DNA of 64,000 nt from the NCBI GenBank assembly GCA_037445065.1, contig JBBILD010000006.1, forward strand, positions 164,539 through 228,538. Direction: 5' to 3'. The notes beneath the pieces were generated by a model that was not told the DNA's origin, did no database searches, and saw only the letters and a program-made list of their open reading frames with translations. Source of the DNA: Myxococcales bacterium. Lineage in GTDB: Bacteria; Desulfobacterota; Binatia; HRBIN30. This document shows, piece by piece, positions 12,899 to 44,786 of the stretch. Numbering within the stretch: position 1 is the first letter of the stretch; each line of letters begins with the position of its first letter. The position numbers and the translations under genes were made by a program.

Positions 12899-13029
12899 CG
12901 TAGCGACGAGGATCGGATTGGGCGTTGGGTGATCAAAGGGAGCCGGGGCCCTTACGTGCGCCTGCGCTGCCTCGGAGAGCGCTTCTCCAGTGCGGCGGTA
13001 GCTCCCTTTGTAGAGGCTGGTCCATCGAA

Positions 13030-14113: not shown

Positions 14114-14143
14114 TTGGTCGCACCAAGTCCTCGCCTCGTTACA
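14114..14143 (-). promoter_or_regulatory. Candidate ECF-sigma promoter of arsM-PiT
   Basis: TGTAAC-N17-CGACCAA, 46 nt upstream of the arsM ATG; one of five copies. Confidence 0.7.
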
Positions 14144-14494
14144 ATTGCCAGACTCGCTCCCATGCCGCGCCTCTCGACTCACCCTGTACGTTGCGAAGCA
14201 GCGTGAACCTCTTCTCGGGCCCCCGCATAGGCCCGAGAAGAAGCGCAGCCCGCAGATCGCGGAAAACCCAGTGTCGGCGCGCACGGGCGCGCTCGTCGGT
14301 ACAGTTGCCTCCCGCTGTCAAGGGCGCCCGGAGCCACGGCGTTATCGCGCCTTCGCTGGCACGCCCAAACAGCGCCGACGGGCCAGGCAAGGGAAGCGCA
14401 TGCAGTTCTGGCTTTGGACAGCCCTCCGAACTGAGTTGCGTGCGCTCCCGTGCAACGCGGAAACCGTCTCGCTTGTTGCGGACCGCACATTGCG

Positions 14495-15133
14495 TCATGG
14501 TGCGAGATGGACACCGCGCGCCAGTGAGGGCGGCAATTCGCTGAGGTGGGCTGGTTCGTCAATGTCAGTGAGCGCTGGAAACTCCTTCCAAAGCCACCCA
14601 ATCTCGCGTAGGCGTGCCCTGGTTTGTGCCGCTACAGACGAAGTACTCCACGCGATGTCGGAAAACAGCCGCGGGTGGAAGTGGCGGGCGCCGAGAAGCA
14701 CGTAGCCGCCGTCAGTACTAGGAACCAGCACCGCGTCGTGGCGCGTCAGCGCCTGCCCACAAGCCCTGAGGACGGAGCGTTCTAGGGCAGGACAATCGGT
14801 TCCAAGAAGCAGCACCGCATTCCCCAACGCTGCCGATCGTTCCGCAGCCCGAGCAAGGCGCCGACCTAGATCTCCAGCGCCTTGGTCTGTCCAACGGGTA
14901 ACGCGAGCAGCGAGTCGCTTACGCCATGCCGTCCACACCGGATTCTCTGGCTCGGGAGTAACGCAGAGTTCTACTTCGCCGATACCCGAACGGCACGCTT
15001 CTCGAACCGTGTAGAGGAGCATGCGGCGGGCGAGAAGCGCGGCGCCTACTTCTCCGAGCGCGGGGATGAGCCGCGTTTTTACGAACCCGGGAACGGGTGC
15101 CTTTGCGAACACCACAAGGCGCAAGCCCTTCAC
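14495..15133 (-). CDS. TIGR04282-type arsenosugar biosynthesis glycosyltransferase (CofC/DUF2064-like)
   Basis: FAKAPVPGFVKTRL, QGAGDLGRRL, GTDCP, DGGYVLLG, WSTSSV, DIDEP. GTGA overlap with the upstream gene. Confidence 0.85.
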   Translation of the reverse strand: MKGLRLVVFAKAPVPGFVKTRLIPALGEVGAALLARRMLLYTVREACRSGIGEVELCVTPEPENPVWTAWRKRLAARVTRWTDQGAGDLGRRLARAAERSAALGNAVLLLGTDCPALERSVLRACGQALTRHDAVLVPSTDGGYVLLGARHFHPRLFSDIAWSTSSVAAQTRARLREIGWLWKEFPALTDIDEPAHLSELPPSLARGVHLAP

Positions 15134-15804
15134 GGGTAGGCCCTCGCCAAATCTTCCGCAGGGACGCCGAGCCAATACAAGCAGCGAAGCCGCCACATGA
15201 GAAGGATCGTTCTCCATACCCCGTACGTTTCCCACCGGCGCCCAGAAGTGGTTACGCGCGAGCCCACGCAAGCCGGGCGGCCGAGCTGCTTCAGCGCACG
15301 GGACAGCCAGATGTCTTCCATCAACGGTTGGTCGGGATAGCCCCCGACTTTCCAGAAAACGTCGCGGCGGACGAAAATGGCTTGGTCTCCGGTGGCAATC
15401 CCACTGAGTCGGGAGCGCAGGTTCATCAGCGCGGCAATCACTGGGAACCAGCGGCTTCGACCTTCGATGCGTACGTCGAAGCGGCCCCAAAGGACCTGGG
15501 GGCGGGAGAGTGCTCGAGCGATTTGGTAGCACGCGTCGGGAGGCAGCCGCGTATCCGCATGCAGAAAGACGAGTGCCTCGCCGGTAGCCACGCTCGCACC
15601 TGCGTTCATTTGCCTTGCTCTTCCCCGCGGGGCGCACAAGACCCGGAAACCAAGGGCACGCGCAAAGGCGACCGATCCGTCTTGACTGCCGCCGTCTACA
15701 ATCAGCACCTCGCACCCAGCCCGGCGCAGTGGCAGCAAGTGCTGCAACAACGAGGGGAGCTGCGTCATTTCGTTGAGCATCGGAACGATGAGGGAGATTT
15801 TCAT
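15130..15804 (-). CDS. TIGR04283-type GT2 arsenosugar biosynthesis glycosyltransferase
   Basis: IVPMLNE, VDGGSQD, RARQMNAG, FLHADT, TGDQAIFVRR, LMEDI, TSGRRW. ATGA overlap with the DUF547 gene. Confidence 0.88.
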   Translation of the reverse strand: MKISLIVPMLNEMTQLPSLLQHLLPLRRAGCEVLIVDGGSQDGSVAFARALGFRVLCAPRGRARQMNAGASVATGEALVFLHADTRLPPDACYQIARALSRPQVLWGRFDVRIEGRSRWFPVIAALMNLRSRLSGIATGDQAIFVRRDVFWKVGGYPDQPLMEDIWLSRALKQLGRPACVGSRVTTSGRRWETYGVWRTILLMWRLRCLYWLGVPAEDLARAYP

Positions 15805-16724
15805 CGTCTGCTTGCTACAGAGTCGTTCAGACTCCAATCGTAGTCTCCGAAGCGGATGGGGATGCGGCCAGCCCGCAACGCCGTTTCTCGTTCAGGGGAC
15901 AGCTCGAGTTCGCGTGCGTAGAGTGCCAGAAACTCCGCGAGCGAAGTCGCACCGCGGAAGCCCTGCTCGAAGTCGCCGCGATACCAGTGGAAGATCGGAG
16001 ACACTTCCAAGTACGTCCCCACCAGCCGATTCCGACCGCGATCTCCGAGAAATCGGCGCGCTTGATCCTCGAGCTGTGCATCGAGTTCACTTCCTGTGTA
16101 CGCCTCGGGCCGCAATGCTGGACAGCCGACACTGGCGCAATTGAGGGCAAAGTGAACCCGTGGGTCTCGGTAGCGCCCTGAGCCGCGAATGAGTCCGTGT
16201 TCGATATCGTCCAGAGAGACCGTCTTGCTCAGCAAGCGAATGAACGGACGCTTCCAAGGCGATTGGAAGAGGGACCCCAAGTCCTTGATGGACTTGAGCC
16301 CCGGGTATCGGCTCAAAACGAGTTGGATGGTGAAGGCATTGTAGGCGTTGATGAGGAACGCCAGTTGCTGGCTCGCGGGCCAGGTGTCAAAGGCGGCTTG
16401 TTGCACCGCCGATAGGTTGGCCAAATAGGCATCCAGCGCTGCTTGATTTCTCTTGAATCCCGCGTAGTCCACAGTACTCGCGTGCCCTTCGTACACCCAA
16501 CGCACGTGTTGTTTGAGGAGCGTGTCCCAGGAGCTGTGGTCCGCGAACGCGAAAACAGGCCAGGCCGGGAACAGTCCGAGCAAGAGGAAGGAAAAGCAGG
16601 CTAGGAGGTTCCGGTGGCAGGTCGCGCCGCGCTGGGGCGTGCTCGCGGAAGGCCGCGGAGACTCGGCCGCTCTCCCTTTTCCGGTGGCAAACAGGGCTGC
16701 CATCGCTCTCTGGACTAGGGCCAT
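15801..16724 (-). CDS. DUF547-domain exported protein
   Basis: QLAFLINAYNAFTI, SLDDIEHG, DPRVHFALNCASVGCP, YDWSLN, and a signal-like hydrophobic segment. Start codon is uncertain. Confidence 0.85.
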   Translation of the reverse strand: MALVQRAMAALFATGKGRAAESPRPSASTPQRGATCHRNLLACFSFLLLGLFPAWPVFAFADHSSWDTLLKQHVRWVYEGHASTVDYAGFKRNQAALDAYLANLSAVQQAAFDTWPASQQLAFLINAYNAFTIQLVLSRYPGLKSIKDLGSLFQSPWKRPFIRLLSKTVSLDDIEHGLIRGSGRYRDPRVHFALNCASVGCPALRPEAYTGSELDAQLEDQARRFLGDRGRNRLVGTYLEVSPIFHWYRGDFEQGFRGATSLAEFLALYARELELSPERETALRAGRIPIRFGDYDWSLNDSVASRR

Positions 16725-17710
16725 GACGGCCGAGCCTCCGCTCCTGCCGAGGTTTGCAGGGCGCCACCGCAACTACTGCCCTGGCCCGCAGTGCAGCCGT
16801 AGCAATGGTCGGCAACCCGAATCGGCGAACCGGCAGGATCCCACTCGAGCAAGTCGCGCAAGTGGGCGGGCCGCAGCTGGCGGTTGAGCGGCAAGCGAAG
16901 CTGCTGGTTGAAGTCGCAATCGTACAGGTAGCCCTGCCAGTCCACACTCACGAGGGAACGGCACATGACCTGGTCTGTGTTGCCCGCCCGGAAGTGCTCC
17001 TTGAGCAATCGCAGGTAGTTGTGAAACTCGCCGCGCGAAAGCAGCCACGAGCCGAAACGCTGAATCGGCATGTTGGTTAGAACGAAGAGGTGGTGGAAAA
17101 CGATGCCGAAGCGCTCGCGTAGCTCCTGCTTGTACGCCGCTTCGAGGGACGTTTGGTTCGGCGGTAGGCTGGGGCCGAGCGGATTGTATACGAGATGAAG
17201 CCGCAGGGGGGAGTCCTCTTGGCCGTAGCCAAGGGCGTTCAGCTTCCGTAATGCCGCAATGCTCTTTTCGAAAACACCCTTGCCGCGCTGGCGATCTACG
17301 TTGTCGGCGGAGTAGCAGGGCAGAGATGCGACCACCTCCACTGAGTGGTCGCGCAGAAACTCAGCCAGGTCTTCCTCGCCTGGCTCGAACAGGACCGTAA
17401 GGTTGCAACGGTCGATGACGCGCACCCCGAGACCATGCGCGGCACGCACAAGATCCCGGAACCCTGGATGCAATTCCGGAGCCCCGCCGGTAAGGTCGAG
17501 GGCGGAGATCCGCCGCGCTGCGAGCACTTTTGGGATCAGCGCCAAGATGTCTGCTTGCATCATCTCTGTGCGGTACGGCCCGGCGTTGACATGGCAGTGC
17601 ATGCACGATTGGTTGCAGCGGTAGCCCAGGTTCACCTGCAGCGTGTTTACGGGCCCGCGCTTCAGTGCGGGGAAATCTGTGGGCTCGAGTAGTGGCAAAA
17701 CGGTCTGCAT
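16715..17710 (-). CDS. arsS: Arsenosugar biosynthesis radical SAM protein ArsS (TIGR04167 family)
   Basis: LQVNLGYRCNQSCMHCHVNAGP, DLTGGAPEL, SLPCY, YDCDFNQ, HCYGCTAGQGSSCGG. Confidence 0.92.
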   Translation of the reverse strand: MQTVLPLLEPTDFPALKRGPVNTLQVNLGYRCNQSCMHCHVNAGPYRTEMMQADILALIPKVLAARRISALDLTGGAPELHPGFRDLVRAAHGLGVRVIDRCNLTVLFEPGEEDLAEFLRDHSVEVVASLPCYSADNVDRQRGKGVFEKSIAALRKLNALGYGQEDSPLRLHLVYNPLGPSLPPNQTSLEAAYKQELRERFGIVFHHLFVLTNMPIQRFGSWLLSRGEFHNYLRLLKEHFRAGNTDQVMCRSLVSVDWQGYLYDCDFNQQLRLPLNRQLRPAHLRDLLEWDPAGSPIRVADHCYGCTAGQGSSCGGALQTSAGAEARPSWP

Positions 17711-17779
17711 CTTTTTTCCTCTCGAAACAAAGAACGGAATGTTTCATCCCTTGAGATCGTTGACGGGTGCGGCGTTGCT

Positions 17780-17809
17780 ATGGTCGTTCCCCTCCATCGC
17801 TCTCTTACG
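17780..17809 (-). promoter_or_regulatory. Candidate ECF-sigma promoter of the arsS operon
   Basis: CGTAAG-N17-CGACCAT, 69 nt upstream of the arsS ATG. Confidence 0.68.
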
Positions 17810-17841
17810 GTCGAGGTGGCGGGCAGGATGAGATTCGCGCC

Positions 17842-17871
17842 CGTAAGAAACGGAGAGCCTGGCCCGACGAA
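17842..17871 (+). promoter_or_regulatory. Candidate ECF-sigma promoter of the AhpD-like gene
   Basis: CGTAAG-N17-CGACGAA, 85 nt upstream of ATG 17957; back-to-back with the arsS copy. Confidence 0.65.
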
Positions 17872-17956
17872 CGGGGCCAGAGCTGCTGCGACCTACGCCT
17901 GCGTTCGGACAACTGCACAGGGGGATCGCGCGAGCGTTCGATTCGAAAGGAGGAGA

Positions 17957-18544
17957 ATGACCATGGAAAGAAAGTCCGCTCTCCTGGATCTTGTCCCGTA
18001 TTCAGCCGAATCGGCACCGGAGAAAGCTAAGGAGCTAATGGAAAGGATTCGCGCCAAGTATGGATTCGTTCCGAACGTGTATGCGGGGATGGCTCATTCC
18101 CCTGGCCTCCTCGAGACGTACCTAGTCGGGTACGAGCAGTTCCGGGAGAAGAGTGGGTTGAACCCAATTGAGCAAGAGGTCGTTTTCCTCACCATCAGCC
18201 GCTTCCACCGATGCCACTATTGCATGGCCGCGCACAGTCTGGTGGCCGATTTGGTGGCGAAAATGCCGACTGACGTCCTGGATGCTGTTCGCAAAGGCAG
18301 GAGCATTCCTGACCCCAAGCTCGCCGTGCTAGCCTCTTTCACCCACGCCATGGTGGAAACCCGGGGAATGCCAACGCCCGAGCAGGTGCAGGAATTTCGC
18401 GCTGCAGGGTACACCGACCGGCACGCGCTCGAAATCATTCTGGCGTTGGCCCTCAAGACCATGAGCAACTTCTCGAATCACCTGCTGCAACCGGAGCTGG
18501 AGCCGGCTTTCCGAGCCTATGCGTGGGCGGAAGACCCTAGCTGA
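17957..18544 (+). CDS. Carboxymuconolactone decarboxylase/AhpD-family peroxidase-related protein
   Basis: YGFVPNVY, EQEVVFLTIS...CHYCMAAH (CxxC), KTMSNF. AGGAGGAG RBS; start is 17957 or 17963. Confidence 0.88.
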   Translation: MTMERKSALLDLVPYSAESAPEKAKELMERIRAKYGFVPNVYAGMAHSPGLLETYLVGYEQFREKSGLNPIEQEVVFLTISRFHRCHYCMAAHSLVADLVAKMPTDVLDAVRKGRSIPDPKLAVLASFTHAMVETRGMPTPEQVQEFRAAGYTDRHALEIILALALKTMSNFSNHLLQPELEPAFRAYAWAEDPS

Positions 18545-18765
18545 GTCTTATAAGGGTCCCGATTTGGCCCGGCGCATTGACGAGCGCTGGCTTGTTCGGC
18601 CACAGGGCCTGCGGCGCTGATTTCTAGGCTGCGGCACGGCTTTTCTCGGCCCGCAGGCTGGGCCATCACTACTGAGTGCACTGCCAGCAGTGCTCGCAAC
18701 TGGAGCCGGGCGCAAGTCGCGCTCGGCCTGGAGAATCAGGAGTCACGACCCGGAGCGTCCCGGCT

Positions 18766-18966
18766 TCATTTCGCGCCAGGCATGTTCGGGCGATCCGTGC
18801 TGACGTATCGGCGGATCGCTTGTCGTAGTAAGAGGAACTGCTTGCGGGCATTGCGGCAACCGGAACACATCATTGCATGGAACATTAGAGCGACCCTTTC
18901 CCGCCAACTCAGCGAACGCTCCTGCGCCTCGCTCATCAAGCGAGTGGCTTCACGGCAGCTCAACAT
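18766..18966 (-). CDS. zf-HC2 (ZAS) zinc-binding anti-sigma factor, 66 aa
   Basis: MLSCREATRLMS and HAMMCSGC (HxxxCxxC). Start overlaps the sigma stop codon. Confidence 0.88.
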   Translation of the reverse strand: MLSCREATRLMSEAQERSLSWRERVALMFHAMMCSGCRNARKQFLLLRQAIRRYVSTDRPNMPGAK

Positions 18967-19622
18967 GGTTTGCCTCCCGAGAACCAGCGGTTCTCGAGGC
19001 ACTCCCGCAAGCGCAGGCGCGCCCGGTGCAACATGACGTTCAAGTTCGTTGCCGTAATCCCTAGGCTGGTACAGATCTCGTGGCTTTCGAGTCCTAAAAA
19101 CTCCCGCATCATGAAGACCCGTGCCTGGCGCGCGGGCAGATGCTCTAAGCACGCTTCGAAGACTTGCCAGAACTGTGCGTTTTGAAACGCATCTTCTGGG
19201 TCTTGCCAGGTACGAGGGCGTTCTTGAGCGAGCCAAAAGCCCTGCTGATCGAACCACTCCCCTTCTTCCTCCTCGTCCTCCCGCAGCAATTGGCTGGCCT
19301 CAACCAGTCGCTGGCGCCGGCGCAGCTCGTCCGCGACTTTGTTTTTGAGGATTGCAAACACCCACGTCTTGAATGCCGAGCGGCCGGCAAAGGTGCTCGC
19401 GTTTTTCATTGCACCAGCGAGTGCCTCCTGAACGGCGTCCTCGGCTGCCTGGGGATCGGACAGTTGCAGGGTGGCGAACTTAAGCATTTGCCGGCGCAAC
19501 TCACCGAGAAACCCCTCGTCGAGCGCCGCCACACTGGTTGCGCGAGCACTGCCTAGCGAAGGTGGCGTCCGCGTCTCATTCATTGGTTGTCCGTCGTTCT
19601 GTTCGGCCAGAGTGTCTTTCAC
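18960..19622 (-). CDS. ECF sigma-70 factor (TIGR02943-like)
   Basis: AEDAVQEAL, FKTWVFAILKNK (region 2), VFMMREFLGLESHEIC and VMLHRARLRLRECLE (region 4). GTGA overlap with the upstream oxidoreductase. Confidence 0.92.
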   Translation of the reverse strand: MKDTLAEQNDGQPMNETRTPPSLGSARATSVAALDEGFLGELRRQMLKFATLQLSDPQAAEDAVQEALAGAMKNASTFAGRSAFKTWVFAILKNKVADELRRRQRLVEASQLLREDEEEEGEWFDQQGFWLAQERPRTWQDPEDAFQNAQFWQVFEACLEHLPARQARVFMMREFLGLESHEICTSLGITATNLNVMLHRARLRLRECLENRWFSGGKPC

Positions 19623-20780
19623 GCACGGGGGCAGGGAAAAGCTGGAAGTAAACTACCGAAGGAGAAACGAGCAATAAAGCTCCTGTCCAGCGTTTCCTTC
19701 CACTTCCAGGCCAAGCGGCCTTCAAAATGCAAAGGACCCCACGCCGCGACGGCATAGCCAGGCCCGCAGCTCAGCAGAGATAGGGTCCATGCGCGCGGCT
19801 GGACCATTCGCAACGGTTCACCGCATAAAGCCGCCCGGAGGTTGTGGGCAAGGAACGACCCCGTGCGTGCAGCGTGGATGTCCGCGCCCGGCAACCTACC
19901 ACCGGCGGGCGTGCACGTCTCTCCAACGCAGAAGACGTTGGGATGCGAGACGCTGCGGTGCGAACTGTCCACGAGTACGAACCCCGCCGGGTCGAGGTCC
20001 AACCCCGATTGCCGCAGCCAGTGCGGAGGGCGCACATTCGTGGCTGCAAGAACAGTATCTGCCGCCAAGTGCCTACCGCTGCCGAGGAACACGCCGGCGG
20101 AACTGCCCACCGCGTCCTCTCGGATCCACTTGATTCCAGCCGTGCGCAACAACCGTTGGATACGGCGGCGCACGCCCTCCGGGTAGCCAGACAACAATCC
20201 TGCCTCACCGCTAATGAGCACAGTCTCGACCCCGAACGGTCCCAGTTTCTTCTGTGCGGCGAAGGCGAGTTCGACTGCATGACGTCCCTCGCCGATCACT
20301 ACGATGCGAGAAAGCGTGCCTCGCTGTGCTCTGGTGACAAGCTGCTGCCAACCCGCGCAAAAGTCGGTTGAAGGACGGAGTGCTAGCAGGCGGTTTCCGC
20401 AGGCAGCGAGGCTCGAGACATCCGTTTCCCCTTCGAGTTCGAGCGAGACCACCCCGTAGGCAAGTGTGGCGCCGCTCACGAACCGGGCTCGAGACTGCCG
20501 TGCGTCAATCGCTGCGATTCGGTCTTCGATGAAGCGGATCCTTGCCCGAGCGCATAGGGCCCGCAAATCGATCCGCCATTCTTCTTCCCGATAGTACCCG
20601 CCCATCCACTCAGGCAGCATCCCAACGGGAAACGAATACCGCGTGGGAGCCACGAGTATCACTTCCCCTGCATCGAGCGGCGTGCGGGCGAGCTGCTCGA
20701 GGACGAAGAGGTGGGCCTGCCCCCCCACCGGCCAGGAGTAGCCGTCGCCTGCCATTGTGGGTGGATTGCAGCGCCTCCAT
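19619..20780 (-). pseudogene. FAD-dependent pyridine nucleotide-disulfide oxidoreductase (resembles the domain found N-terminal to SelD), +1 frameshift in G7 tract 20720-20726
   Basis: ATG 20780 reads MEALQSTHNGRRRLLLAGGG. Deleting one G continues QAHLFVLEQL, restoring the LxGGGxAH Rossmann start. Later motifs SVSHPNVFCVGE and WKWKETLDRSFI. Confidence 0.75.
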
Positions 20781-20871
20781 GGCTGACCGGCCCGCTCGCG
20801 GGCCGGCGCGCATTCCCGTACCTGGACAGTATGCCACAGGGTGATGCCCGTGGAATCTCATCTTGTCCGCG

Positions 20872-20900
20872 TTGGTCGGACTGGGCGCACGTTTCTTACC
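20872..20900 (-). promoter_or_regulatory. Candidate autoregulated ECF-sigma promoter of the oxidoreductase-sigma-anti-sigma operon
   Basis: GGTAAG-N16-CGACCAA, 91 nt upstream of ATG 20780. Confidence 0.7.
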
Positions 20901-20971
20901 TGACGGGCAGCGTCGGTGGCATTTCCGCTGGACACGGATGTCTCCCGAGAAGGGCGATTCATGCCAGATCT

Positions 20972-22330
20972 TCAGAGGACCAGTTTGTACGCGAGACCGA
21001 ACGCGCCGCTCAGCGCAATAACTGGGATCACGCCGGCTTGCTGGCGAAAGAGCAAGTAGGTGGCGCCAAGGGCAATGCATGCTGAGGGCCAGTCGAAACG
21101 GCCGCTGAATCCATGTGGCCAAAGCACGTGGTAAGTCAGGAACAATGCCAAATACACGATCACCCCGGTTACCGCCGCAGTAACTGCCTGTAGCGGCGCC
21201 GTGAGCGTCAGATTGCCGCGCGTGGATTCGACCATAGGGCCACCCGCGAGAATGAACAGAAAAGAGGGCAGAAAGGTAAACCACGTGGCCACTAGGGCGG
21301 CGAGTGCCCCTCCTGCAAAGGTGTACTCCGGGCCGAGGAGTGCCTGCCGGTAGCCGGCTACGAAGGCGACGAAGGCCACCACCATGATCAGTGGACCTGG
21401 AGTCGTTTCGCCGAGCGCTAAGCCGTCAATCATCTCTCCAGGAGTAAGCCAGCCGTAATGGTTCACAGCGGCTTGGTACACATAGGGAAGCACCGCGTAC
21501 GCGCCCCCGAAGGTGAGCAAGGCGACCTTGGTAAAGAACCAAGTCATCTGCGTGAACATGCCACGCCAGCCGTCCGTTGCGGCCAGCCACGCCATTGGCA
21601 CCACCCAAAGCAACGCACCGGCCACCAGCACTCGGGCAAAGCTGCGCGCGCGAAAGCGGGTGTGTTCTGGTGGGGGCGTGTCCTCGTCGATCAGCGCGGG
21701 AGTAAATTGCGAGACGGCCCCATTTGTTTTTCCCAGCAATCGCTCAGGAGCCAAGCGCCAGGCCAAGTAGCCGACCACCGCCGCGCCGGTCAAAATCGCC
21801 GGGAACGGCACCTGGAGGGCGGAGATGGCCACGAAGGAGGCGGCCGAAATTGCCCAAAGCAAATGGCTGCGAAGCGTACGCGTGCCAATGCGGTAAGCGG
21901 CGTGCGCGACGATCGCGGTGACCGCCGGTTTGAACCCGTAAAAGAGCCCGGCCACAGCGGGCTGGTTGCCGAACGCAACATAGAGCCACGCTAGTAGGGT
22001 CAGGAGGATCAGCGACGGCAGGACGAACAGGGCTCCAGCAGCAATTCCGCCCCACGTGCGATGCAGTAACCAGCCAATGTAGGTGGCAAGCTGCTGGGCT
22101 TCCGGCCCGGGAAGCAGCATGCAGTAGTTCAGAGCGTGCAGAAAGCGAGGTTCGCTGATCCAACGCCTCCGCTCGACGAGTTCGGCGTGCATGATCGCGA
22201 TTTGGCCGGCTGGACCACCAAAGCTCACGAAACCAAGTTGGAGCCAGAACCGAAGCGCCTCCCGAAAGCTCACAGTCGCTGGTCGCGAGGTTGGTCCCTG
22301 GGAAGGGGGTTCCGTCGTCTGCGCTGTCAC
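20972..22330 (-). CDS. chrA: Long-chain chromate efflux transporter
   Basis: GFVSFGGPAGQIA, LPGPEAQQLA, TFGGAYAVLP, TTPGPLIMV; two CHR halves. Confidence 0.93.
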   Translation of the reverse strand: MTAQTTEPPSQGPTSRPATVSFREALRFWLQLGFVSFGGPAGQIAIMHAELVERRRWISEPRFLHALNYCMLLPGPEAQQLATYIGWLLHRTWGGIAAGALFVLPSLILLTLLAWLYVAFGNQPAVAGLFYGFKPAVTAIVAHAAYRIGTRTLRSHLLWAISAASFVAISALQVPFPAILTGAAVVGYLAWRLAPERLLGKTNGAVSQFTPALIDEDTPPPEHTRFRARSFARVLVAGALLWVVPMAWLAATDGWRGMFTQMTWFFTKVALLTFGGAYAVLPYVYQAAVNHYGWLTPGEMIDGLALGETTPGPLIMVVAFVAFVAGYRQALLGPEYTFAGGALAALVATWFTFLPSFLFILAGGPMVESTRGNLTLTAPLQAVTAAVTGVIVYLALFLTYHVLWPHGFSGRFDWPSACIALGATYLLFRQQAGVIPVIALSGAFGLAYKLVL

Positions 22331-23725
22331 ACTAGGGCCCTTGCTCGAGGATCACCGTAGCTGTGCGCGCAGGTGCTTCCACTGCAGACAGGAACCGTTC
22401 CTGTTCCGAGGCAATCTTCCATCGTCGCTTGCAACTCCTGGTGCATTGCAGGTGAGCTGGGTGCGTCAGTTGCTGCGAAGGGACTCGGGGCTTCTGTTGT
22501 GGCCCTGGACAGTCGCCGTGCGGGCCAGCCTCCGCTGCCAGAAACTCGCTGCGGCTCCTGAGGCCACGAGTAAGAGCGGCCTTTTCTCCTCCGTTAGCCT
22601 ATGTCGAGGGAGCGGTTCCCTGTTTGCCGGACCTCGTGCACGTCTCCCGTCAGCGCCTGGATCGGATGCAAACAGCTCTGCTCGTCGGAAGAGAACGCCC
22701 CACCGGGGCACGCCGATCACGTTCTTGTTCGGACCGCTCCGGCGTGTAGGCCCTGTTCGAGGGCCTACGGGACTGGTGCGGGAGCCGGTAGAGCCTCCAC
22801 GTCTCCCCGCTCTTGTGCTCCTCCCAGTTGCGAAGCTGCGGACATTGTGCTGCCGACTTGCTCGGCCACTCCTGCAAGTCTGGAAGCGCCTCTTGCCCAG
22901 CCCGTCTGTCGGCGAGCCAGAGCCGCCCGCTCACGTAGACAGCGTTCGTTTTGCGCGGCAGGTCGTCCACGGCTTTGCACAAACGAGTGCATGCTCCAAC
23001 GCTGCCTGCGTGCCGCGGGCAGCACCTGAGAGGCAGTCGCGCCGAATTCGGGTGGCGGTCGCCCCTCCGCAGCTCTACCCCGCGAAGCTCCCGATCCTTG
23101 CGGCGCAACCACACAGCCTGCCAGCTTGGCTCGCAGTGGCGGCGCACCCACCTTCGCCGCGACTGGCGGTTCCGTCGGCACACGTGCAAGCAGAAGAGCT
23201 GCCCTTACAACAATTGGCAGCCCCGGTAATTCAACGGAATCCGAACACCCACAGCACGGGGCCACGTGCCGCTGCTTGCACAGCGGGCGCGGGTACGAGA
23301 TGCCATCCAGGTTGTGTAGGGGCGACCCTTGTGGTTACCGGAGGTGCCGTTGGCAGTGCTGTTCGAACGTGCCCGCGGCGTTTATGCGACCACGCGTTGC
23401 TGGCAGCATGGTGTCCCTTCGCCGCACTCCCCTGCCCCCCGAGGCATGCTGTCACCACTACCACCAACAACGCTGAAATCGTTGCGCATGGCTCCCCGGG
23501 ATTGGACCGCAGCGCCTACCCAGGAGCGCTTTCGGCGTGAGCGGCCGAGCGCACTCCTGGCGAGTGGGCAATGAGCTGGCCGATCGCCGGCGTTTGGGGA
23601 CGCCGCTGGTGCGAGCACTTCGGTGCGGCCCAGGCTCGACCTCCGCGGCTTTGGTTCCGAAACTTCGTTGCTTGAGTTGCGTGCTAAGGGGTGTAGCGTG
23701 CCGAGTCAGGCGAGGAGGGTTGCGC

Positions 23726-25280
23726 ATGCACCCAGCCGCCGCACGGCAAAGGTGGCCTAGTAGTCGCGGGGGGCGTACTCGCGCATGCGCGTGGTTCCTC
23801 GCGGTCGTGTTCTTTTGGGCGAGCCCGGAGGCTCCATGGCTTTGGCACTCGCTGCCTGCCCGCTCGACTGCAATGAAGACGGGCTCGTATCGGAGAGCGG
23901 GTTAGCCCTTGGACTCGCCAACGTCTCTCCCCGAGCAGTGTTTGGCTGTCCCATCGCTGGCCCGCAGTCGACTCCAACGCCGACGGCGACTACGGCGTCG
24001 AGGACCTCATCCGCGGCGCCACGGCTCGCCGTCTGCAGTGCGAAGATGTGGCATCACCGGCAGGCTGGCGCGGTGCGGTCATTGACGCATTGCAGGGACT
24101 CTATCTCATCGGTGCCCAACTCCGCGCCAACCGCTGACCTCCACCGGGCACGTTGGCGTCCGACCCCTCATGGGCGTGGCTTGGGCCGGATTCTGCCACG
24201 CCGAGCCCACGCCTCAGTTCCGGTTCGTCACCACAACCTCCAATCTGCCCTGGATGCGGCCTGGCTGGCCACCGCCGAATTGTGCCTTCGACCCGCCGGC
24301 GGCGGCTTATCTCGCGGACGTGCCGCCCACCCCTACCCTCACGCGCACGCCTACCAGCAGCACACCTACCCCGGGCACGCGCACCCCCACTTGGATTGCC
24401 ACGCCCACTCGGACGGCCACGGCCACTCCCACCGGTCCCACGCCCATACGTACACCGGTTCTCTTATGCGACACTGTGGATTGCCGCGGGATCGCTCCGG
24501 ACTGCTGCCCGTGCCCTGGAGATTCCTGTCCCATTGCCGATTGGCAGGTGGAACCAATACCGCAAGTGCAAGGAGTATTTCTGCGCGCTCGATCCGTTGA
24601 GCCCGGCGTGCTTGGGCGAGTGTGGGACTTGTCCACCGAATGCTCCGTGTCTCGGCGCTCCAGCGACTGCTTGTGCGACAGCCACCTACACGCGTACGCC
24701 GGCGTGCAGCCCACGCGCACCGCCAGTCCCACTCGCACGCCCACCGGACCGACCCGTACTCCCACCGCGGCGCCACCCCCGGCGCGCATCCCCGGACTCG
24801 CTGTGCCGATCCTCGACGTATCCGGGAGCAACGGCGAGCGTGTGACCGTCGAGGCGTACTTAGTGGGCAGCGGCGGCAAGGTTGGCGGTTTGGAATTCGA
24901 CTTGCTGCTGCTGCAGGCGGCTGTAGCGCCAGTGGCTGTGTCGGAACAATCGGCGGACAGCGTCCTGCAAGCAGCCTTTCTCTCCACCCACCGCTTGCCT
25001 CTAGTCGCGCCCCCGATCACCCGCTCGCTGGATTCGACCGGGTGCCGGTGCTGGTGGCGGACCGCAACGTGACCGACCGACTGCGCGACGAAACGCAGAT
25101 GTTGAGCGACGGTGTGGTGGTGACCTGCACTCTGACCATCCTCACCAACGCGCCTAGGGGCGGCCACCCGTTGCGCGTGGATCGGGCGCGAGCAGGCGAT
25201 GAGCGCGGCACTTCCCTGTGGCCCTTCCGGGGCAGGCGACGCTGTGGGTGGGGGGCTGTTCGGGGAGCTGCTGCTCAAAG
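23726..25280 (+). pseudogene. Heavily frameshifted secreted protein: dockerin-like pair, Thr/Pro linkers, Cys-rich segment, cohesin-like domain
   Basis: AGGAGG RBS and ATG 23726 with a signal-like segment. CPLDCNEDGLVS and DSNADGDYGVEDLIRG lie in different frames. TPT-rich tracts, then VSGSNGERVTVEAYL...GGLEFDL and DGVVVTCTLTIL in shifting frames. End is approximate. Confidence 0.6.
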
Positions 25281-25291
25281 GAGGCGCCACC

Positions 25292-26354
25292 ATGAGGCCG
25301 ATGTTGTTCGGCACATACAGAACAACCGAACCCGCACCGCCTGCCTGGCTTGCAGCGCTGCTCGCGGCAGCCGTTGTTCAGGCTCGTGGGGCCTGGGGCC
25401 AGTTCGTACTCGAGGAAAGGTGGGACTTCCGGTACCCAGGCCCAGGCTATGTCATCGAGCGCACGGCCTGGTATGCGGTCTACCCGGTCAAAACCAGAGA
25501 TGCCATTGGTCCGCCTGGAGGCAGTGCGATGATTTCCGTTGCAGTGCGCCCGACATTGCGCTGTTGCGACTCAGAGCCGCAAGCGTTCTGGGAGGGGTGG
25601 TTTTCTCTCCGCTTCGCGGGTCTCGAGGGCTTGGGTTCCCCGTTGCAGCGCAGCTTTATCCGGCGCGGCCTGCGGTGAGCCGTGCTGCCCGATTCTTTGC
25701 AAGTCGTCCCGGACCGAGGGTCTGGATGGCGTCTTCTCCCTCCCCGTTGGGGTGGGTTTCGGTTCATTCCGGCCAAGGTTCCGGATATCCAGGTCCGGGA
25801 ATGGCTCAGGGGGCTGAGAGCCCCTGGTCGCCCTGAGTCAGCGCCATGCGAGAGGATCGTGGTTTGGTTTTACGTTGGGCTTCAACTGTTGCTTGAAGGC
25901 GAGTCGGGCCCATTCGCAACGGACCCGATTCCGATTCACGAGTGGCCCGAGGGGGCCCTCGGGCCTGCCGTTTTTCGCGCCTGAGGATTCGGCGGTGTGC
26001 TGTGGCTTCTTTGTGCCTGCTACTGCCCGCCCAGGGACGTACCCGGCAGAGTGCGCGGGCAACGAAGAAGGGATCCTGCTGCCGCCGGAGTGTGGCGGCT
26101 GCCAACGGGGCGCTTTGCACGTGGTGCCGTGCGTGGCCGACTGCAACCGCGACGGGCAGGTGACCGTGGAGGAACTGGTGCGCGCGGTGGGCGTGGTGGT
26201 GGGCAGGGAGCGTTACGAAGGCTGCGCTGCTGCCGATGGCAACGAAGACGGGGCGGTCGCCTTGGATGAGGTGGTGCGTGGCGTGCGCAACGTGCTGACG
26301 AGCTGCCTGCAGACCTGGATGGAAGCGCACAACGCCCCTCTAGAGGTGCCGTGA
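25292..26354 (+). pseudogene. Secreted protein with C-terminal dockerin-like domain; in-frame TGA at 25676-25678 and a frameshift near 25950-25980
   Basis: AAAGGAGG RBS and signal peptide. ORFs 25199-25678 and 25682-25984 are in the same frame. C-terminus CVADCNRDGQVTVEELV...ADGNEDGAVALDEVV. Confidence 0.65.
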
Positions 26355-26944
26355 TGAGGTTCTCGGCTCGGCTCTCGAGCGTGCTGATCGCTGTCTTGCT
26401 TGCACCGCCCACGGTGCGGTTTGCCGCTGCCATTGACTCCACTGGGGTGCTCAAAGCGACCATTCATCCTGCGGCGGCTCGCGCCGGGGGTGAGGGCGAC
26501 CTGCTGTTTTCGCTTGCCTCTCCCGACGAATCCTGGGAAGGCAAGCGGCTGCGGGGACTGCTGAACTGGCCTCGTGCTGGCGGCAGAGAGCCCAGCCACC
26601 CGTGGTGGTGGGTGCGCAAGGCAGAAAACGGCGTGCCCGACGGCGAGCCCTGGGACGCTGCTGCCTTTACCGAGTTCGAGGTTCGGTTCCACCCGCCAGG
26701 TTGTAGGGAGGGGGTGAATCGCTTCGCGATGACCTTGCGCGGCGAAGTGCACCGCGCGCCGGAACCTCCCATCGTGCGCTGCCGCATCGCGGTGGCGCCA
26801 ACCCGTTCTCCAGGCGAGTACGTGCACTAAACGGGTTGCCCGTTCGGTGCTGCACTCTGCCGGGTGGGCTACCTCTGGCGCCAGTGGTTGGAGGAACCGT
26901 GCGTGCGGATCCCGGGGCGTTTCCCTCTGCGGGTGGAGCCATGA
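26351..26944 (+). pseudogene. Secreted cohesin-like hypothetical protein with probable premature TAA at 26828-26830
   Basis: Signal peptide and start overlapping the previous stop. The frame stays open for 37 codons past the TAA and ends in an ATGA overlap with the next gene (26941-26944). Confidence 0.5.
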
Positions 26945-27447
26945 AGCGCATGACCTGGCTAGCGCGCGCCAACCTATTGCGTGTGCTCCGCTTGTTCGCC
27001 GTCGTCTCCGCTACCACTGCTGTGCTCGCCTTCCTGGCCGCTGCCTTGCCTCCCCTCTCGGTTGCACTGCTGCCGACCTCGCTGGCCTTGCGCGGGAGCT
27101 TGGAGGAGGCCGTTGGCAACGAAGGGCAGACTGGGGCTCCGGACCGGCGGTTGCAGTGGAGCTTCGTTGGCCAGCGCCAAGGCCACGCGTTGCATGGTAA
27201 GTGGCTCATACTCGGCCATCCGAGTTGGAACAGTTTGGCAGTGGAAGCCGCCGTCCTTCCTGAGGTTGTCGAGGGCTTGCTCATGGGCGCGGGTGGCGAG
27301 GTGGTCGGGAAGTTGTCCGGCCGCTGGAGTACTTCGGGGGCAGAGGGCACCTACGAGCTCTTGAGCGGCGAGGCGGGTAGCTGGAATTGGCCCTCGGCGG
27401 CGCCCGACACACCACCGACGGCCGAGAAAGAGCCCGCGCTGGCATGA
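26941..27447 (+). CDS. Hypothetical membrane-anchored/secreted protein
   Basis: ATG after GGTGGAG, N-terminal hydrophobic segment, Gly/Trp-rich beta-type C-terminus (GRWSTSGAEGTY...GEAGSWNW). Confidence 0.5.
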   Translation: MKRMTWLARANLLRVLRLFAVVSATTAVLAFLAAALPPLSVALLPTSLALRGSLEEAVGNEGQTGAPDRRLQWSFVGQRQGHALHGKWLILGHPSWNSLAVEAAVLPEVVEGLLMGAGGEVVGKLSGRWSTSGAEGTYELLSGEAGSWNWPSAAPDTPPTAEKEPALA

Positions 27448-27538
27448 GCGAGCGGAAGTCGCTGGGCGAGGCCCTCGGTCCCGGAGTGCGCGCGGGGCAC
27501 CACCCGTGCGACCCGAACCCAGCAGAGGGCGATTCGGG

Positions 27539-28376
27539 ATGTGGCCTTACCTAGGCGGAGTTCCGGCATATTACGCCGCCTGGGTCGCCGCGGCGGCGGC
27601 GTTCCTGGGGTGGGGCTACCGGGCTTAGCGGTGCAGCACCGCTCGGAGCCTGCCTCGCTTTTTATTGCCGCTATCGCTGGTGTGCGCAGTGCTGCTCGGG
27701 ACAAAGGCGGCTTACGGATTGGAGCGATCGCACGGGCTGAGCACCATGCCCTTTGCCGCACCTGAGTGGTGGTCCGGTTTTCGCCTGCCCGCCGGGAGTG
27801 TGCTCGCGCCCTGTTGCTTTTGTGTTGGGGCTCGCCTGGCGGCGCTTCCGTTCGGCACCGTTGCCGATGCGCTCTCGGTACCGGCATGGGCGAGCGTGGC
27901 ACTGCTCCAAGTCGGCTGTTTGCTCAATGGCTGCTGCTTCGGGCGCTCGAGCTCTCTCCCGTGGGCGGTCTGCTTGTATGGGCACACACAACCTTTCTGC
28001 TGCACGCCAAACTGGGCTGGGTTGCCAGCAGCCAACCTTCTACTGCCCCAGCTCACCCGCTGCCCTTGTACTTTGCTGCGCTCGCCCGGCTCGCTGCGGT
28101 AACCTCTAGCTTCTAAAGGTCTCGGTGGGGCGGCCTGGTGCTCGGTTCCTGACCGCGCTGTGCGTGTACGGTTCGGGTGCCGCGTTTCTGGAGCCGTTGC
28201 GCCCGCTCTGGTTGTGGCCGAACCTCGTTTTCTGCACTGTCCTGAGTGTGGCCAGTGCCGCTGCGCTCGTGAACTTGCACGGCGAAGATCGCGCCGCCCG
28301 GCGTGCTCGACCAGTGGCTCCGCTGTCCAGCGGGAGGGGCCACGATTCGAAGAGAACCGCACCCACGCCCGGGTAG
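27539..28376 (+). pseudogene. Prolipoprotein diacylglyceryl transferase (Lgt)-like remnant
   Basis: MWPYLGGVPAYY start, in-frame TAG 27626-27628, QVGCLLNGCCFGRSSSLPWAV (Lgt RxGCxxxGCCxG signature), and PGARFLTALCVYG...FLEPLR in another frame. Confidence 0.7.
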
Positions 28377-29079
28377 GCTCGAAGCTTGCCAGTTCGAGGC
28401 GCGACGCTGGGCTCTCGTCGCGGCTCAAGGCGGAGCAGGCGATCAGGGGTGTGTGATGACCGGACCACTGCGACTAGTCGCTTACGTGTAAGTCGTGCCG
28501 CGCGTGCGTGCGCTAGCGGGTGCACGGCGAAGGTTTCGGAAGACCACCGGCTGGGCGAAGAAAACCCCCGTTGCGGGTGTTCATGGAGAGCGGTAACGGC
28601 GACCCTCGCGCTCCGCTCGCTTGACTCCGTCCTCACTGTGCCTCTGCGGTCCACGCCTCCAGGACCTGTGATGTGCCGCCCTCACAAGCGCGCAGGAAAT
28701 TGTCGTGGGAAGGCAACGAAGTCCTATCAAACGACCGAAATCTTGCCGCGCTTCCTTTGCGCTTTCTGCCCCTCTTGGCGGCCTTCCCCTCGCTCCTGGA
28801 CTACCTACCAGCCCTGGATCCTTGTCGGCGGAAGGTTTCCCACACTGCGCCTCCGGTCGAGGGCCGAACTCGGCCGCAGAAACTGCCCTCGATCGGGCTC
28901 ATGCGAGAGGGCCGCGAGCAAGGCCGGGTGCGAGGAACGAGCCATTTGCTCTGCACCCCCCGTCCGCCACCAGATCGCCTCTGGCCCGCTCATCTTGGGG
29001 ATCGTTCTCCCGACCTTTCCGCACAACAAAGGGAAAAGACTGGCGTGCAACCCCGCGAGTCGCTTCCGCGTGCGGTTTA

Positions 29080-29108
29080 TGTAACAAGGACTTCGCGCGT
29101 GCGACCAA
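29080..29108 (+). promoter_or_regulatory. Candidate ECF-sigma promoter of the TVP38/MerA-like operon
   Basis: TGTAAC-N16-CGACCAA, 40 nt upstream of ATG 29149. Confidence 0.7.
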
Positions 29109-29148: not shown

Positions 29149-30039
29149 ATGCAAGGAAACACTGAGGGAAACGGGGGCGTCGCCCGCCAGCGTTCTGCGG
29201 GCCTCGCCGGGTTTGCGCGCGGGTTGCGGTGGCTGTGCTGGCTGGTGATTGCAGGCTGTGCGGTAGCGCTCGCTCGTTTGCTTCCGGTGAGCGCGTGGCT
29301 TCAGCAAATCACGGTCGTTGCGGAAGGCGCAGGCCCTTGGGGCCTGGTGATCTTCGGTCTTGCATATGTTGTGGCGGCATTGCTGTTCGTGCCGGGGGCA
29401 GCGATCACGATCGCTGCCGGAGCCGTCTTCGGGCTTGGGCTCGGCATCGTGGTGGTCTCGTTCGCTTCGACTGCCGCCGCCGCACTCGCGTTCGCCATCG
29501 CTCGCTATGCGGCGCGCGGCGCCGTGACGGAGTGGGCGAAAAGATACCCGTGGTTCGTTGCCCTCGATCAGGCGCTCGAGCGTGGCGGATGGCGGATCGT
29601 GGCTTTGCTGCGGCTGTCACCTGTTGTGCCTTTCAACGTGCTCAATTACTTGCTCGGCCTAACCGCGGTCCGTTTTGGGCCGTACGTGCTGGCGAGTTGG
29701 ATTTTCATGCTTCCCGGCACGGTGCTGTACGTGGGAGCGGGTTACGCGAGCCGGCTAGGACTGGAAGCAGCGGCAGGCCAGGAGGCGGCGCTTTCTCTCG
29801 GCCGTTGGCTGCTGCTCGTAGTGGGCCTCGCCGCCACGCTTTTTGTGACCGTGTACGCAGGCCGGCTGGCCCGCCAGGCGATGGCGGAGCAGGTGCAAAG
29901 TCTTGCCAGCCCAAAGCCGCAGCAGCCAGCAACAAGGACGGGAGCCAGTTCTACGGGCCTGCTCGTGCTTGCTTCGCTGGCCGTGTTGATGGTCGCGGTG
30001 ACGTCGTTCGCCTATTTGCACGCGGGTGGGGCCCACTGA
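29149..30039 (+). CDS. TVP38/TMEM64 (DedA/VTT) membrane protein
   Basis: LFVPGAAITIAAGAVFG, LLRLSPVVPFNVLNYLLGLT, MLPGTVLYV. Confidence 0.9.
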   Translation: MQGNTEGNGGVARQRSAGLAGFARGLRWLCWLVIAGCAVALARLLPVSAWLQQITVVAEGAGPWGLVIFGLAYVVAALLFVPGAAITIAAGAVFGLGLGIVVVSFASTAAAALAFAIARYAARGAVTEWAKRYPWFVALDQALERGGWRIVALLRLSPVVPFNVLNYLLGLTAVRFGPYVLASWIFMLPGTVLYVGAGYASRLGLEAAAGQEAALSLGRWLLLVVGLAATLFVTVYAGRLARQAMAEQVQSLASPKPQQPATRTGASSTGLLVLASLAVLMVAVTSFAYLHAGGAH

Positions 30040-30091
30040 GCCCGCGCTCCGCTTCCAACGTGGAAAGACCTACGCATCGCGAGGAGGAACG

Positions 30092-44234: not shown

Positions 44235-44786
44235 ATGAAGCGCTGGTTTGCCCTTTCGGCCATTGGCCCCGATCGTCCGGGGATTGTCGCGGACTTGGCC
44301 GAACTCATTTACGAGTGCGACTGCAACCTCGAAGACTCGAGCATGACCGTGCTCGGGAGCGAGTTTGCAGTGTTGCTGTTGCTCACGGGCGAGGGAGAAA
44401 ACATCGAGCAACGCCTTTCTTCGGCTTGTAAACGTCTGGAATGGGAAAAGCGGCTGACGGTCTTTTTTAGGCCACTGGAGACTGAGCCGGTCTCGTACCG
44501 AGTGGCAGCGCGGGCCAAGCCGTATCTGTTGCAGGCCAGCGGCGTGGATAAGGCTGGAATTGTTGCGCGCGTGGCTCGCACGCTGGCGGGTCATGGGGTG
44601 AACATTACGCGCATGGAAACCGTGTCCCGGCCGGAGCCGGGTACGGGAACTCCGATTTACCACATGCGGATTTGGATGGATGTGCCAGCCAGCGCCGAGT
44701 TGTCGCGGTTGCGAGAGGATTTGGAGCGAGTGGCTGCCGAATTGCTGATCGACATTTCGCTCGAGCCAACGCCTGCGAACGACTGA
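44235..44786 (+). CDS. GcvR-like tandem ACT domain protein
   Basis: AIGPDRPGIVA...CNLEDSSMT and GVDKAGIVARVA...VNIT (two ACT domains). Confidence 0.88.
   Translation: MKRWFALSAIGPDRPGIVADLAELIYECDCNLEDSSMTVLGSEFAVLLLLTGEGENIEQRLSSACKRLEWEKRLTVFFRPLETEPVSYRVAARAKPYLLQASGVDKAGIVARVARTLAGHGVNITRMETVSRPEPGTGTPIYHMRIWMDVPASAELSRLREDLERVAAELLIDISLEPTPAND

Follow-up and report, generated by a model that had tools for sequence, protein, structure and literature searches.

Arsenic genes are usually described as being repressed by ArsR; what, then, governs an island of such genes that encloses a sigma factor gene of its own? The question is posed by a 64,000-nt stretch of Binatia DNA (contig JBBILD010000006.1; hereafter the window), in which arsM- and arsS-type genes lie together with genes for a sigma factor of the extracytoplasmic function (ECF) type and a zinc-associated anti-sigma (ZAS) factor. 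An earlier note on this DNA had proposed that a bipartite motif precedes five transcription units and that the local ECF/ZAS pair drives all of them, i.e., arsM, arsS, an AhpD-like gene, the sigma factor's own operon, and a TVP38/MerA-like pair. Our analysis supports this proposal through the conservation of the motif in 80 loci of other species and through its near match to a promoter published for Neisseria. Judged from these comparisons, the five sites are probably promoters for the ECF sigma factor that the island itself encodes (18960-19622), and the five units would then form one autoregulated regulon. The sigma factor family, the type of anti-sigma factor and, essentially, the promoter are already known; a role for them in the control of arsM/arsS-type genes is new to the literature that we found. 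Our literature search returned no report tying this sigma factor family to arsS or arsM and no regulator described for the arsenosugar pathway; the nearest statement is that arsM of Cupriavidus has a non-RpoD promoter.

Five promoter-like sites in an arsenic gene island

Inspection of the sequence located the five sites where the earlier note had placed them, each of them intergenic and oriented like the gene that follows (Table 1). Together they span positions 14114 to 29108 of the window, which is about 15 kb or 0.4% of the genome, and their -10 elements end 40-92 nt before the respective start codons. They follow the consensus GTAA(G/C)-N16/17-CGAC(C/G)A(A/T), in which the half-sites are kept and the spacer sequences differ from site to site. 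The statement that chrA, a further member of the island gene set, is not preceded by a copy of the motif also held true; beyond the five, the next-best site in the window scores 12.8 bits.

We compared the occurrence of the motif with chance expectation at several levels of stringency. The loose pattern GTAA-N17-19-CGAC matches six times in the window against 2.65 expected matches (the sixth match, at 44286, has a 19-nt spacer); six of 100 shuffled sequences reach the same number, and taken by itself this pattern does not attain significance there. The strict pattern GTAA[CG]-N16/17-CGAC[CG]A[AT] matches eight times in the genome (3,792,780 bp), and five of these matches lie inside the 15 kb, as do five of the 48 matches to the core GTAA[CG]-N16/17-CGAC. 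Since the strict pattern was derived from the five sites themselves, we built an independent weight matrix solely from the 131 sites found in the loci of other species (see below) and scanned the genome with it. This matrix ranks the five sites 1, 2, 3, 4, and 6 genome-wide, with scores of 19.7-23.2 bits. Six sites in the genome reach 19.5 bits or more, compared with a mean of 1.8 (range 0-4) in the six Markov-shuffled genomes that served as background. At 14 bits or more, 18 sites were observed against 22 in the shuffled genomes; the matrix is weakly specific genome-wide, and the genome as a whole is therefore not enriched. The signal consists of five top-scoring, correctly oriented intergenic sites clustered in a small part of the genome, and not of a genome-wide excess. 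Five of the six strongest matches in the genome lie within the 15 kb, and all five face genes.

The five copies could, in principle, be chance matches or functionless remnants of a repeated element, and the behavior of the loose pattern and the occasional matches of equal strength in shuffled genomes would agree with this. We give this explanation next to no credence, however. It is contradicted by the matrix ranks and the clustering of gene-facing sites just described, by spacers that differ while the half-sites are kept, and by the recurrence of the same arrangement in other phyla, including the spacing and the upstream positions of the motif in the 80 loci.

Every strong site in the genome serves the ars-type island and nothing else. 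Three candidates for further members of the regulon were rejected. The site at C1:85052 scores 19.9 bits, but its core reads CCAC and no credible gene follows it. The site at C17:65047 overlaps the ATG of an alcohol dehydrogenase gene and is unconvincing. The site at C23:26004-26031 (GTAAGTTC…CGACCAA) scores below 14 bits and ends 5 nt before the ATG of a gene for an 89-aa glutaredoxin; if real, it would imply a leaderless glutaredoxin transcript.

Conservation of the motif beside related sigma factors

To place the motif in a wider context, we analyzed 80 loci carrying orthologues of the window sigma factor (49-73% identical; one genome per species; 79 Pseudomonadota and one Bacteroidota). 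The motif GTAA[CG]-Nx-CGAC occurs in these loci 53 times with a spacer of 16 nt and 78 times with one of 17 nt, and every other spacer length from 10 to 23 nt yields 2-10 occurrences. Both spacers together thus account for 131 occurrences; 20 shuffles gave 13.5 on average, and seven control patterns, either scrambled or re-spaced, gave 8-43. At least one copy is present in 58 of the 80 loci, and the consensus of the sites in other species reads T-GTAAGAAa…CGAC(T/C)AA. Counting strict motifs within 350 nt upstream of a gene, we found a copy before arsS in 16 of 18 loci, before arsM in seven of 12, and before the oxidoreductase gene in 11 of 19. Genes internal to operons gave a different picture: the MerA-like gene (0/20), the DUF547 gene (0/10), and the anti-sigma gene (0/78) are never preceded by the motif, and the family-2 glycosyltransferase (GT2) gene is in one of 16 cases. 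The scan of orthologous loci that had been proposed as a check thus returned a sharp peak at N16/N17 and an upstream bias for arsS, arsM, and the oxidoreductase gene.

A Pfam analysis of 126 open frames downstream of motif copies, about 101 of which have a family at E <= 1e-5, gives an impression of the genes that the motif serves in these species. The families are arsS (16), Pyr_redox_2 (11), the sigma factor itself (10), PNP_UDP_1 phosphorylases (8), DUF2282 (8), arsM (7), MNIO/MbnB (5), DoxX (5), CMD/AhpD-like proteins (4), HD_5 (3), DUF3179 (3), DUF2063 (2), thioredoxin (2), and glutaredoxin, MsrB, and a molybdopterin oxidoreductase (MsrP-like) with one each. By tblastn, ars-type genes are present in 20 of the 80 loci, a DUF2282/MNIO operon in 27, and both in four. 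An ars-specialised clade of sigma factors was considered and rejected: in a quick tree, the ars label changes 14 times for 17 rows, and 92 of 500 label shuffles give values as low. Since the ars-adjacent sigma factors do not form a clade, we regard them as one type of regulator with a modular regulon and not as an arsenic-specialised branch. In eight proteobacterial loci (L025, L029, L030, L033, L044, L046, L051, L057), the PNP_UDP_1 phosphorylase gene has its own motif and is divergent from the oxidoreductase-sigma operon. The enzyme may be the one that removes adenine after the ArsS reaction; in the window's own genome, no PNP_UDP_1-type gene was seen behind a strong site.

The motif nearly equals the promoter published for Neisseria sigmaE, which consists of the -35 element GTMAGBWTT, 12-13 nt, and the -10 element CGTCTAAH (Hopman et al., 2010; PMC2893595). 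The -35 elements are the same, and the Neisseria spacer of 12-13 nt corresponds to 16-17 nt when counted from GTAAG. Four of the five window sites have an A 12-14 nt beyond the C of CGAC, and 67 of the 131 sites of other species have one about 13 nt beyond it; in Neisseria, a conserved A six nt downstream of the -10 element is the mapped start of gonococcal msrAB (PMC2893595).

Several observations, to which the weak genome-wide specificity of the matrix also belongs, speak against the assignment of the five sites to an autoregulated regulon of the local sigma factor. The -10 element found here, CGAC(C/T)AA, is one base off the CGTCTAA of Neisseria, and the 80 loci show no enrichment of the CGTC version. 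The strict motif stands directly before the sigma gene or the oxidoreductase-sigma pair in only 19 of the 80 loci, and only 33 have a copy up to 4 kb upstream on the strand of the sigma gene; autoregulation is not general across the sigma factor family. The arsM-like protein scores 173 bits with the arsenite methyltransferase model NF008823 (cut-off 263) and 81 bits with NF038099 (cut-off 400), and it stays below the curated cut-off for arsenite methyltransferases in NCBIfam. The oxidoreductase encoded upstream of the sigma factor reaches 245 bits, below the TIGR03169 cut-off of 310, and a run of seven G (20720-20726) puts its first ~20 codons out of frame in this assembly. Finally, ECF-like matches occur at least five more times in the genome and zf-HC2 matches seven more times, so the motif might be read by another ECF sigma factor, or by a DNA-binding protein of two half-sites, with the neighboring sigma factor unrelated to it. 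We regard such a regulator as quite improbable. The motif co-occurs with orthologues of the window sigma factor in many genera (59 of 81 loci when locus L021 of a related genome, G020, is added to the 80) and appears to have moved with the sigma factor into Binatia; of 40 related genomes, G020 alone has a sigma factor of the window type, and it has the motif as well. Moreover, the spacing, asymmetry, and orientation of the sites and their distances to the start codons are features of ECF promoters, and their likeness to the published promoter of this very family points in the same direction.

The sigma/anti-sigma pair and the signal it may sense

The window sigma factor consists of regions 2 and 4 only, scores above the curated cut-offs of its family models (Table 1), and likely starts at the Met at 19583; a homologue of 207 aa is 97% identical to it. 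The ATG of the anti-sigma gene overlaps the stop codon of the sigma gene. The anti-sigma protein possesses Cys4, His30, Cys34, and Cys37 (C-x25-H-x3-C-x2-C), and these residues are kept in 79 of 79 orthologues, whose lengths range from 58 to 86 aa (median 69 aa). An anti-sigma domain with H-x3-C-x2-C and an upstream Cys or His ligand is the layout of ZAS proteins, and zinc binding is predicted. In a PDB search, the best match of the sigma factor was 7qh5 (E 1e-12) and the anti-sigma factor had no match; hence, neither has a close relative in the PDB.

In the layout of its anti-sigma factor, its promoter, and its gene context, the window sigma factor resembles Neisseria sigmaE and Haemophilus RpoE2. 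Neisseria sigmaE (NMB2144, "Ecf") is reported to be autoregulated in the operon NMB2140-2145, whose first gene is DoxX-like, and to control msrAB; its small ZAS anti-sigma factor MseR (NMB2145) needs Cys4, Cys34, and Cys37 for function (Hopman et al., 2010; PMC2893595). As in Neisseria, the anti-sigma gene of the window directly follows the sigma gene, the residues Cys4, His30, Cys34, and Cys37 stand at identical positions, and the motif precedes the sigma factor's own operon; an operon of doxX and hypothetical genes adjoins many orthologues among the 80 loci. Unlike the Neisseria regulon, which is described as msrAB and the sigma operon, the putative regulon of the window comprises arsM, arsS, glycosyltransferases, and disulfide reductases, and an oxidoreductase gene precedes the sigma gene where Neisseria has the DoxX operon. 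RpoE2 of Haemophilus influenzae, assigned to ECF group 13, is accompanied by HrsE, an anti-sigma protein of 67 aa, which co-purifies with RpoE2 and blocks it; RpoE2 activates its own and neighboring promoters, with msrAB, a DMT transporter, mtsZ, and a doxX operon as targets (Nasreen et al., 2021; PMC7907618). HrsE shares its form as a short cytoplasmic ZAS protein with the anti-sigma factor studied here; unlike the present island, the Haemophilus targets include no arsenic genes. By this likeness the window sigma factor would carry the ECF13 label; this group has been merged into ECF293 (Casas-Pastor et al., 2021). The sigmaR/RsrA pair of Streptomyces coelicolor (discussed in PMC2893595) is likewise similar in its Cys-His-Cys-Cys zinc site, in the control of sigma release by cysteines, and in a regulon with thiol-redox genes. 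It differs in ECF group and promoter, and it is not known to have a link to metalloids.

The mechanism that we propose starts from an off state in which the 66-aa zinc-type anti-sigma factor, produced from the same operon, would hold the sigma factor inactive. A thiol-reactive signal (as a guess, either a trivalent arsenical, namely arsenite or a methylated form, or else an oxidant) would attack the Cys3His site and set the sigma factor free. The free sigma factor would raise the expression of the oxidoreductase-sigma-anti-sigma operon, which would amount to positive feedback, and would switch on the arsS-DUF547-GT2-DUF2064, arsM-PiT, AhpD-like, and TVP38-MerA-like units. Their products would methylate arsenic, attach a 5'-deoxyadenosyl group by means of ArsS, and process the compound towards sugar-type products, and the island would also supply disulfide-reductase functions. 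In Proteobacteria, the motif-linked phosphorylase may remove adenine, and the two glycosyltransferase-like proteins may build the sugar products.

Arsenite favors three-cysteine sites and Cys3His zinc fingers, and RsrA of Streptomyces responds to disulfide stress. The Cys3His anti-sigma factor might itself sense arsenic, with As(III) or methyl-As(III) displacing the zinc and freeing the sigma factor. In favor of this are the lack of an arsR gene beside the ars genes and of acr3 and arsB in this genome, and the fact that all its strong sites serve the island. We nevertheless consider it rather unlikely: oxidants, or none of the compounds tested, are what the characterised relatives respond to, and the wider regulon is one of thiol, sulfoxide, and copper functions. 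A real possibility, though one that falls short of probable, is that the same promoters and the same sigma factor answer to stress of a general thiol or oxidative kind (hypochlorite, peroxide, or disulfide stress, perhaps also copper) and not to arsenic, and that the organoarsenic genes are passengers or respond indirectly via thiol depletion. Haemophilus rpoE2 is reported to be expressed more strongly under HOCl, H2O2, and paraquat, and msrAB and a DoxX operon belong to its regulon (PMC7907618); the DUF2282, MNIO/MbnB, DoxX, thioredoxin, glutaredoxin, MsrB, and MsrP-like genes behind the motif in the 80 loci and the lack of a separate ars-adjacent clade agree with such a signal, as does the report that a peptide which binds copper is the product of the DoxX-peptide-MNIO-DUF2063 operon (PMC11252979). 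Against it stand the Neisseria regulon, which H2O2, diamide, and singlet oxygen did not induce (PMC2893595), the restriction of all strong sites of this genome to the ars-type island, and the failure to find any other arsenic sensor or efflux gene in the genome.

Control by the island's own sigma factor, as favored here, would set this locus apart from the ArsR-repressed ars operons (arsRBC/acr3). Both have arsenic handling as their output, and the three-cysteine site is a plausible As(III) ligand site; unlike repression by ArsR, the control proposed here would act through promoter recognition. No ArsR/SmtB-family gene lies anywhere in the window, and neither acr3 nor arsB was found in the genome (completeness 97.7%); the label "ArsR-independent" given to the island in the earlier note therefore fits the genome. 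The single HTH_5 match of the genome (C9:42590-42997; L133:5090-5497) is an ArsR/SmtB-type gene divergent from a DabA/DabB-type pair for an inorganic-carbon transporter, away from metal and arsenic genes.

A conserved promoter tied to one sigma/anti-sigma pair offers a handle on the pathway, namely expression of the sigma factor without its anti-sigma factor. It also points to co-regulated candidates for later steps: the PNP-type phosphorylase, the DUF547 protein, the pair of glycosyltransferase-like proteins, and the MerA-like reductase with its link to the membrane. The output of the Neisseria/Haemophilus sigmaE-type family would be widened from sulfoxide repair to metalloid chemistry, and the sensor hypothesis is testable. 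If the anti-sigma factor were an arsenic sensor, this widespread family would add to ArsR a further, separate class of switch that responds to arsenic, and it would be in overall command of arsenosugar-type biosynthesis in Proteobacteria and Binatia. It would then be a general sensor of soft, thiol-seeking metals and of oxidants, and this would also explain why one family presides over copper-binding peptides, sulfoxide repair, and organoarsenic synthesis.

Gene content and origin of the island

Judged by the overlaps between adjacent genes and by the placement of the sites, the island would comprise five transcription units: arsS-DUF547-GT2-DUF2064, arsM-PiT, the AhpD-like gene, oxidoreductase-sigma-anti-sigma, and TVP38-MerA-like (Table 1).

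Table 1. Putative promoters (P) and genes of the island, with positions in the window. Distances are those between the end of the -10 element and the start codon.
Feature	Position	Strand	Details
P(arsM)	14114..14143	-	TGTAAC-N17-CGACCAA; 20.6 bits, genome rank 4; 46 nt to arsM ATG
P(arsS)	17780..17809	-	CGTAAG-N17-CGACCAT; 19.7 bits, genome rank 6; 69 nt to arsS ATG
P(ahpD-like)	17842..17871	+	CGTAAG-N17-CGACGAA; 21.3 bits, genome rank 3; 92 nt to ATG 17964; divergent from P(arsS)
P(oxidoreductase-sigma-anti-sigma)	20872..20900	-	GGTAAG-N16-CGACCAA; 22.0 bits, genome rank 2; in chrA-oxidoreductase gap; 91 nt to start codon (116 nt if ATG 20755 is the start)
P(TVP38/MerA-like)	29080..29108	+	TGTAAC-N16-CGACCAA; 23.2 bits, genome rank 1; 40 nt to ATG 29149
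PiT/PHO4-family phosphate (arsenate?) transporter	11807..13090	-	PHO4, E 2e-54; start overlaps arsM stop; no own motif
arsM-like SAM methyltransferase	13030..14067	-	Methyltransf_31, E 1e-37; best NCBIfam match arsenite methyltransferase NF008823
TIGR04282/DUF2064 glycosyltransferase-like	14495..15217	-	190.6 bits, cut-off 134; last gene of arsS unit; start ATG 15217 or GTG 15133
TIGR04283 family-2 glycosyltransferase (GT2)	15130..15837	-	280.3 bits, cut-off 182
DUF547 protein	15801..16772	-	PF04784, E 5.7e-28; overlaps arsS end
arsS, radical SAM enzyme	16715..17710	-	TIGR04167, 456 bits, cut-off 300; DUF3641 and Radical_SAM
AhpD-like (carboxymuconolactone decarboxylase family)	17964..18544	+	TIGR01926, E 6e-19, below cut-off; CMD, E 2e-4
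ZAS anti-sigma factor, 66 aa, cytoplasmic	18766..18966	-	zf-HC2, E 2e-6; NF052368 'antisigmaE' 65.7 bits, cut-off 50
ECF sigma factor (PRK12544/TIGR02943)	18960..19622	-	NF009196 298.3 bits, cut-off 287; TIGR02943 247.4 bits, cut-off 162.2; Sigma70_r2 and r4_2
TIGR03169-type pyridine nucleotide-disulfide oxidoreductase	19619..20780	-	TIGR03169, E 1e-72
TVP38/VTT-domain membrane protein	29149..30039	+	VTT_dom, E 1e-22; 7 kb from chrA
MerA-like FAD disulfide oxidoreductase (PRK06370.1-3)	30026..31660	+	NF004991, 705 bits, cut-off 620

The NCBIfam set for arsenosugar biosynthesis, i.e., ArsS (TIGR04167), TIGR04282, and TIGR04283, is present with all three members above their cut-offs. The arsM-like protein is 66-76% identical to ArsM proteins encoded beside the sigma factor in other species, and we take its cysteine motifs to resemble those of ArsM. 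A comparable ArsM-ArsS arsenosugar pathway was reportedly described for Synechocystis by Xue et al. in 2019. The island is like that system in its arsS gene, which scores above the equivalog cut-off, in its arsM-like methyltransferase, and in the TIGR04282/TIGR04283 partners. Unlike Synechocystis, it has putative ECF promoters, the MerA-like reductase, the DUF547 protein, the PiT transporter, and the AhpD-like gene, all of which also occur in Proteobacteria. ArsS itself is reported to adenosylate DMAs(III) to DDMAA (review PMC13598754).

Neighboring genes in other species show further parallels. The MerA-like homologue directly follows arsS in other species, the divergent pairing of a CMD-family gene with arsS recurs in the loci L025 and L030, and none of two PiT homologues has its own motif. 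The locus of the cultivable Caldimonas manganoxidans ATCC BAA-369 (L026) combines the sigma and anti-sigma genes with arsS, a MerA-like gene, GT2, and arsM, and motif copies precede its arsS and arsM. In the window oxidoreductase gene, the out-of-frame codons include the first part of the GGG motif for dinucleotide binding. One base is missing at 20720 in contigs from three further sequencing runs (X2, X3, X4; three studies), and this shorter version restores both a start at ATG 20780 and the motif LLLAGGGQAHL; the contig of the run that may be the source of this DNA keeps the seven G. Either a mistake in the assembly or a difference between strains may account for the shift.

In the island region, a search for sigma-70-like promoters found none (1.5 expected), and a search for Rfam elements was also negative. 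The gap that separates the putative arsM promoter from the DUF2064 gene holds an inverted repeat with perfect 10-bp arms (CTTCTCGGGC … GCCCGAGAAG; 14211-14240, minus strand) around a 10-nt loop; it lacks a T tract and may be a terminator or a processing site. The stretch of about 7 kb from chrA to the fifth promoter (22330-29000) contains many overlapping open frames and no clear gene.

Where does the island come from? An orthologue of the sigma factor (71% identity) is present in just one of the 40 related genomes, G020; matches in the others are at most 38% identical. G020 carries a compact island with the motif before the sigma gene, arsS, and arsM. In its locus (L021; G020:C3), sigma region 4 and the C-terminus of the MerA-like protein lie in shifted frames, and these apparent frameshifts are either assembly errors or decay. 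The closest sigma proteins elsewhere are 61-77% identical, and those with a named source come from Gamma- and Betaproteobacteria. A quick tree with midpoint rooting and weak support around the window sigma factor places it among proteobacterial sequences, nearest to a Methyloversatilis locus (74% identity). The arsS gene is present in 27 of the 41 genomes of the group. The copies outside the window genome and G020 are 51-61% identical, and 19 of these 26 matches among the related genomes contain in-frame stops, namely TGA in 15 (one of them also with TAA) and TAG in four; in-frame TGA would fit a selenoprotein form of ArsS. The window gene, which is the Cys form, and the G020 gene have no in-frame stop, and they are 60-74% identical to proteobacterial arsS. 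From the tree placement and these identities, the island, its sigma pair, and its promoters appear to have been acquired as one module from Proteobacteria. Such a module, regulator and promoters included, would move between phyla as a unit.

For the native arsS loci of Binatia, control by an ECF sigma factor was also considered and was rejected: a nearby ECF gene accompanies only three of 24 loci, all from one genus, and it is a different one; the other 21 show no such gene within about 9 kb. In the three genomes concerned, G008, G018, and G024 (L109:5643-7470, L110, L111), a native cluster of the order DUF547-arsM-arsS-PiT-TVP38/MerA-like-GT2 is divergent from this ECF gene, whose product is about 30-35% identical to the window sigma factor and is accompanied by a 227-aa, membrane-anchored ZAS anti-sigma factor. 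The gap between the divergent genes holds TGTAAC/CTAAC-N17-GACC-like sequences.

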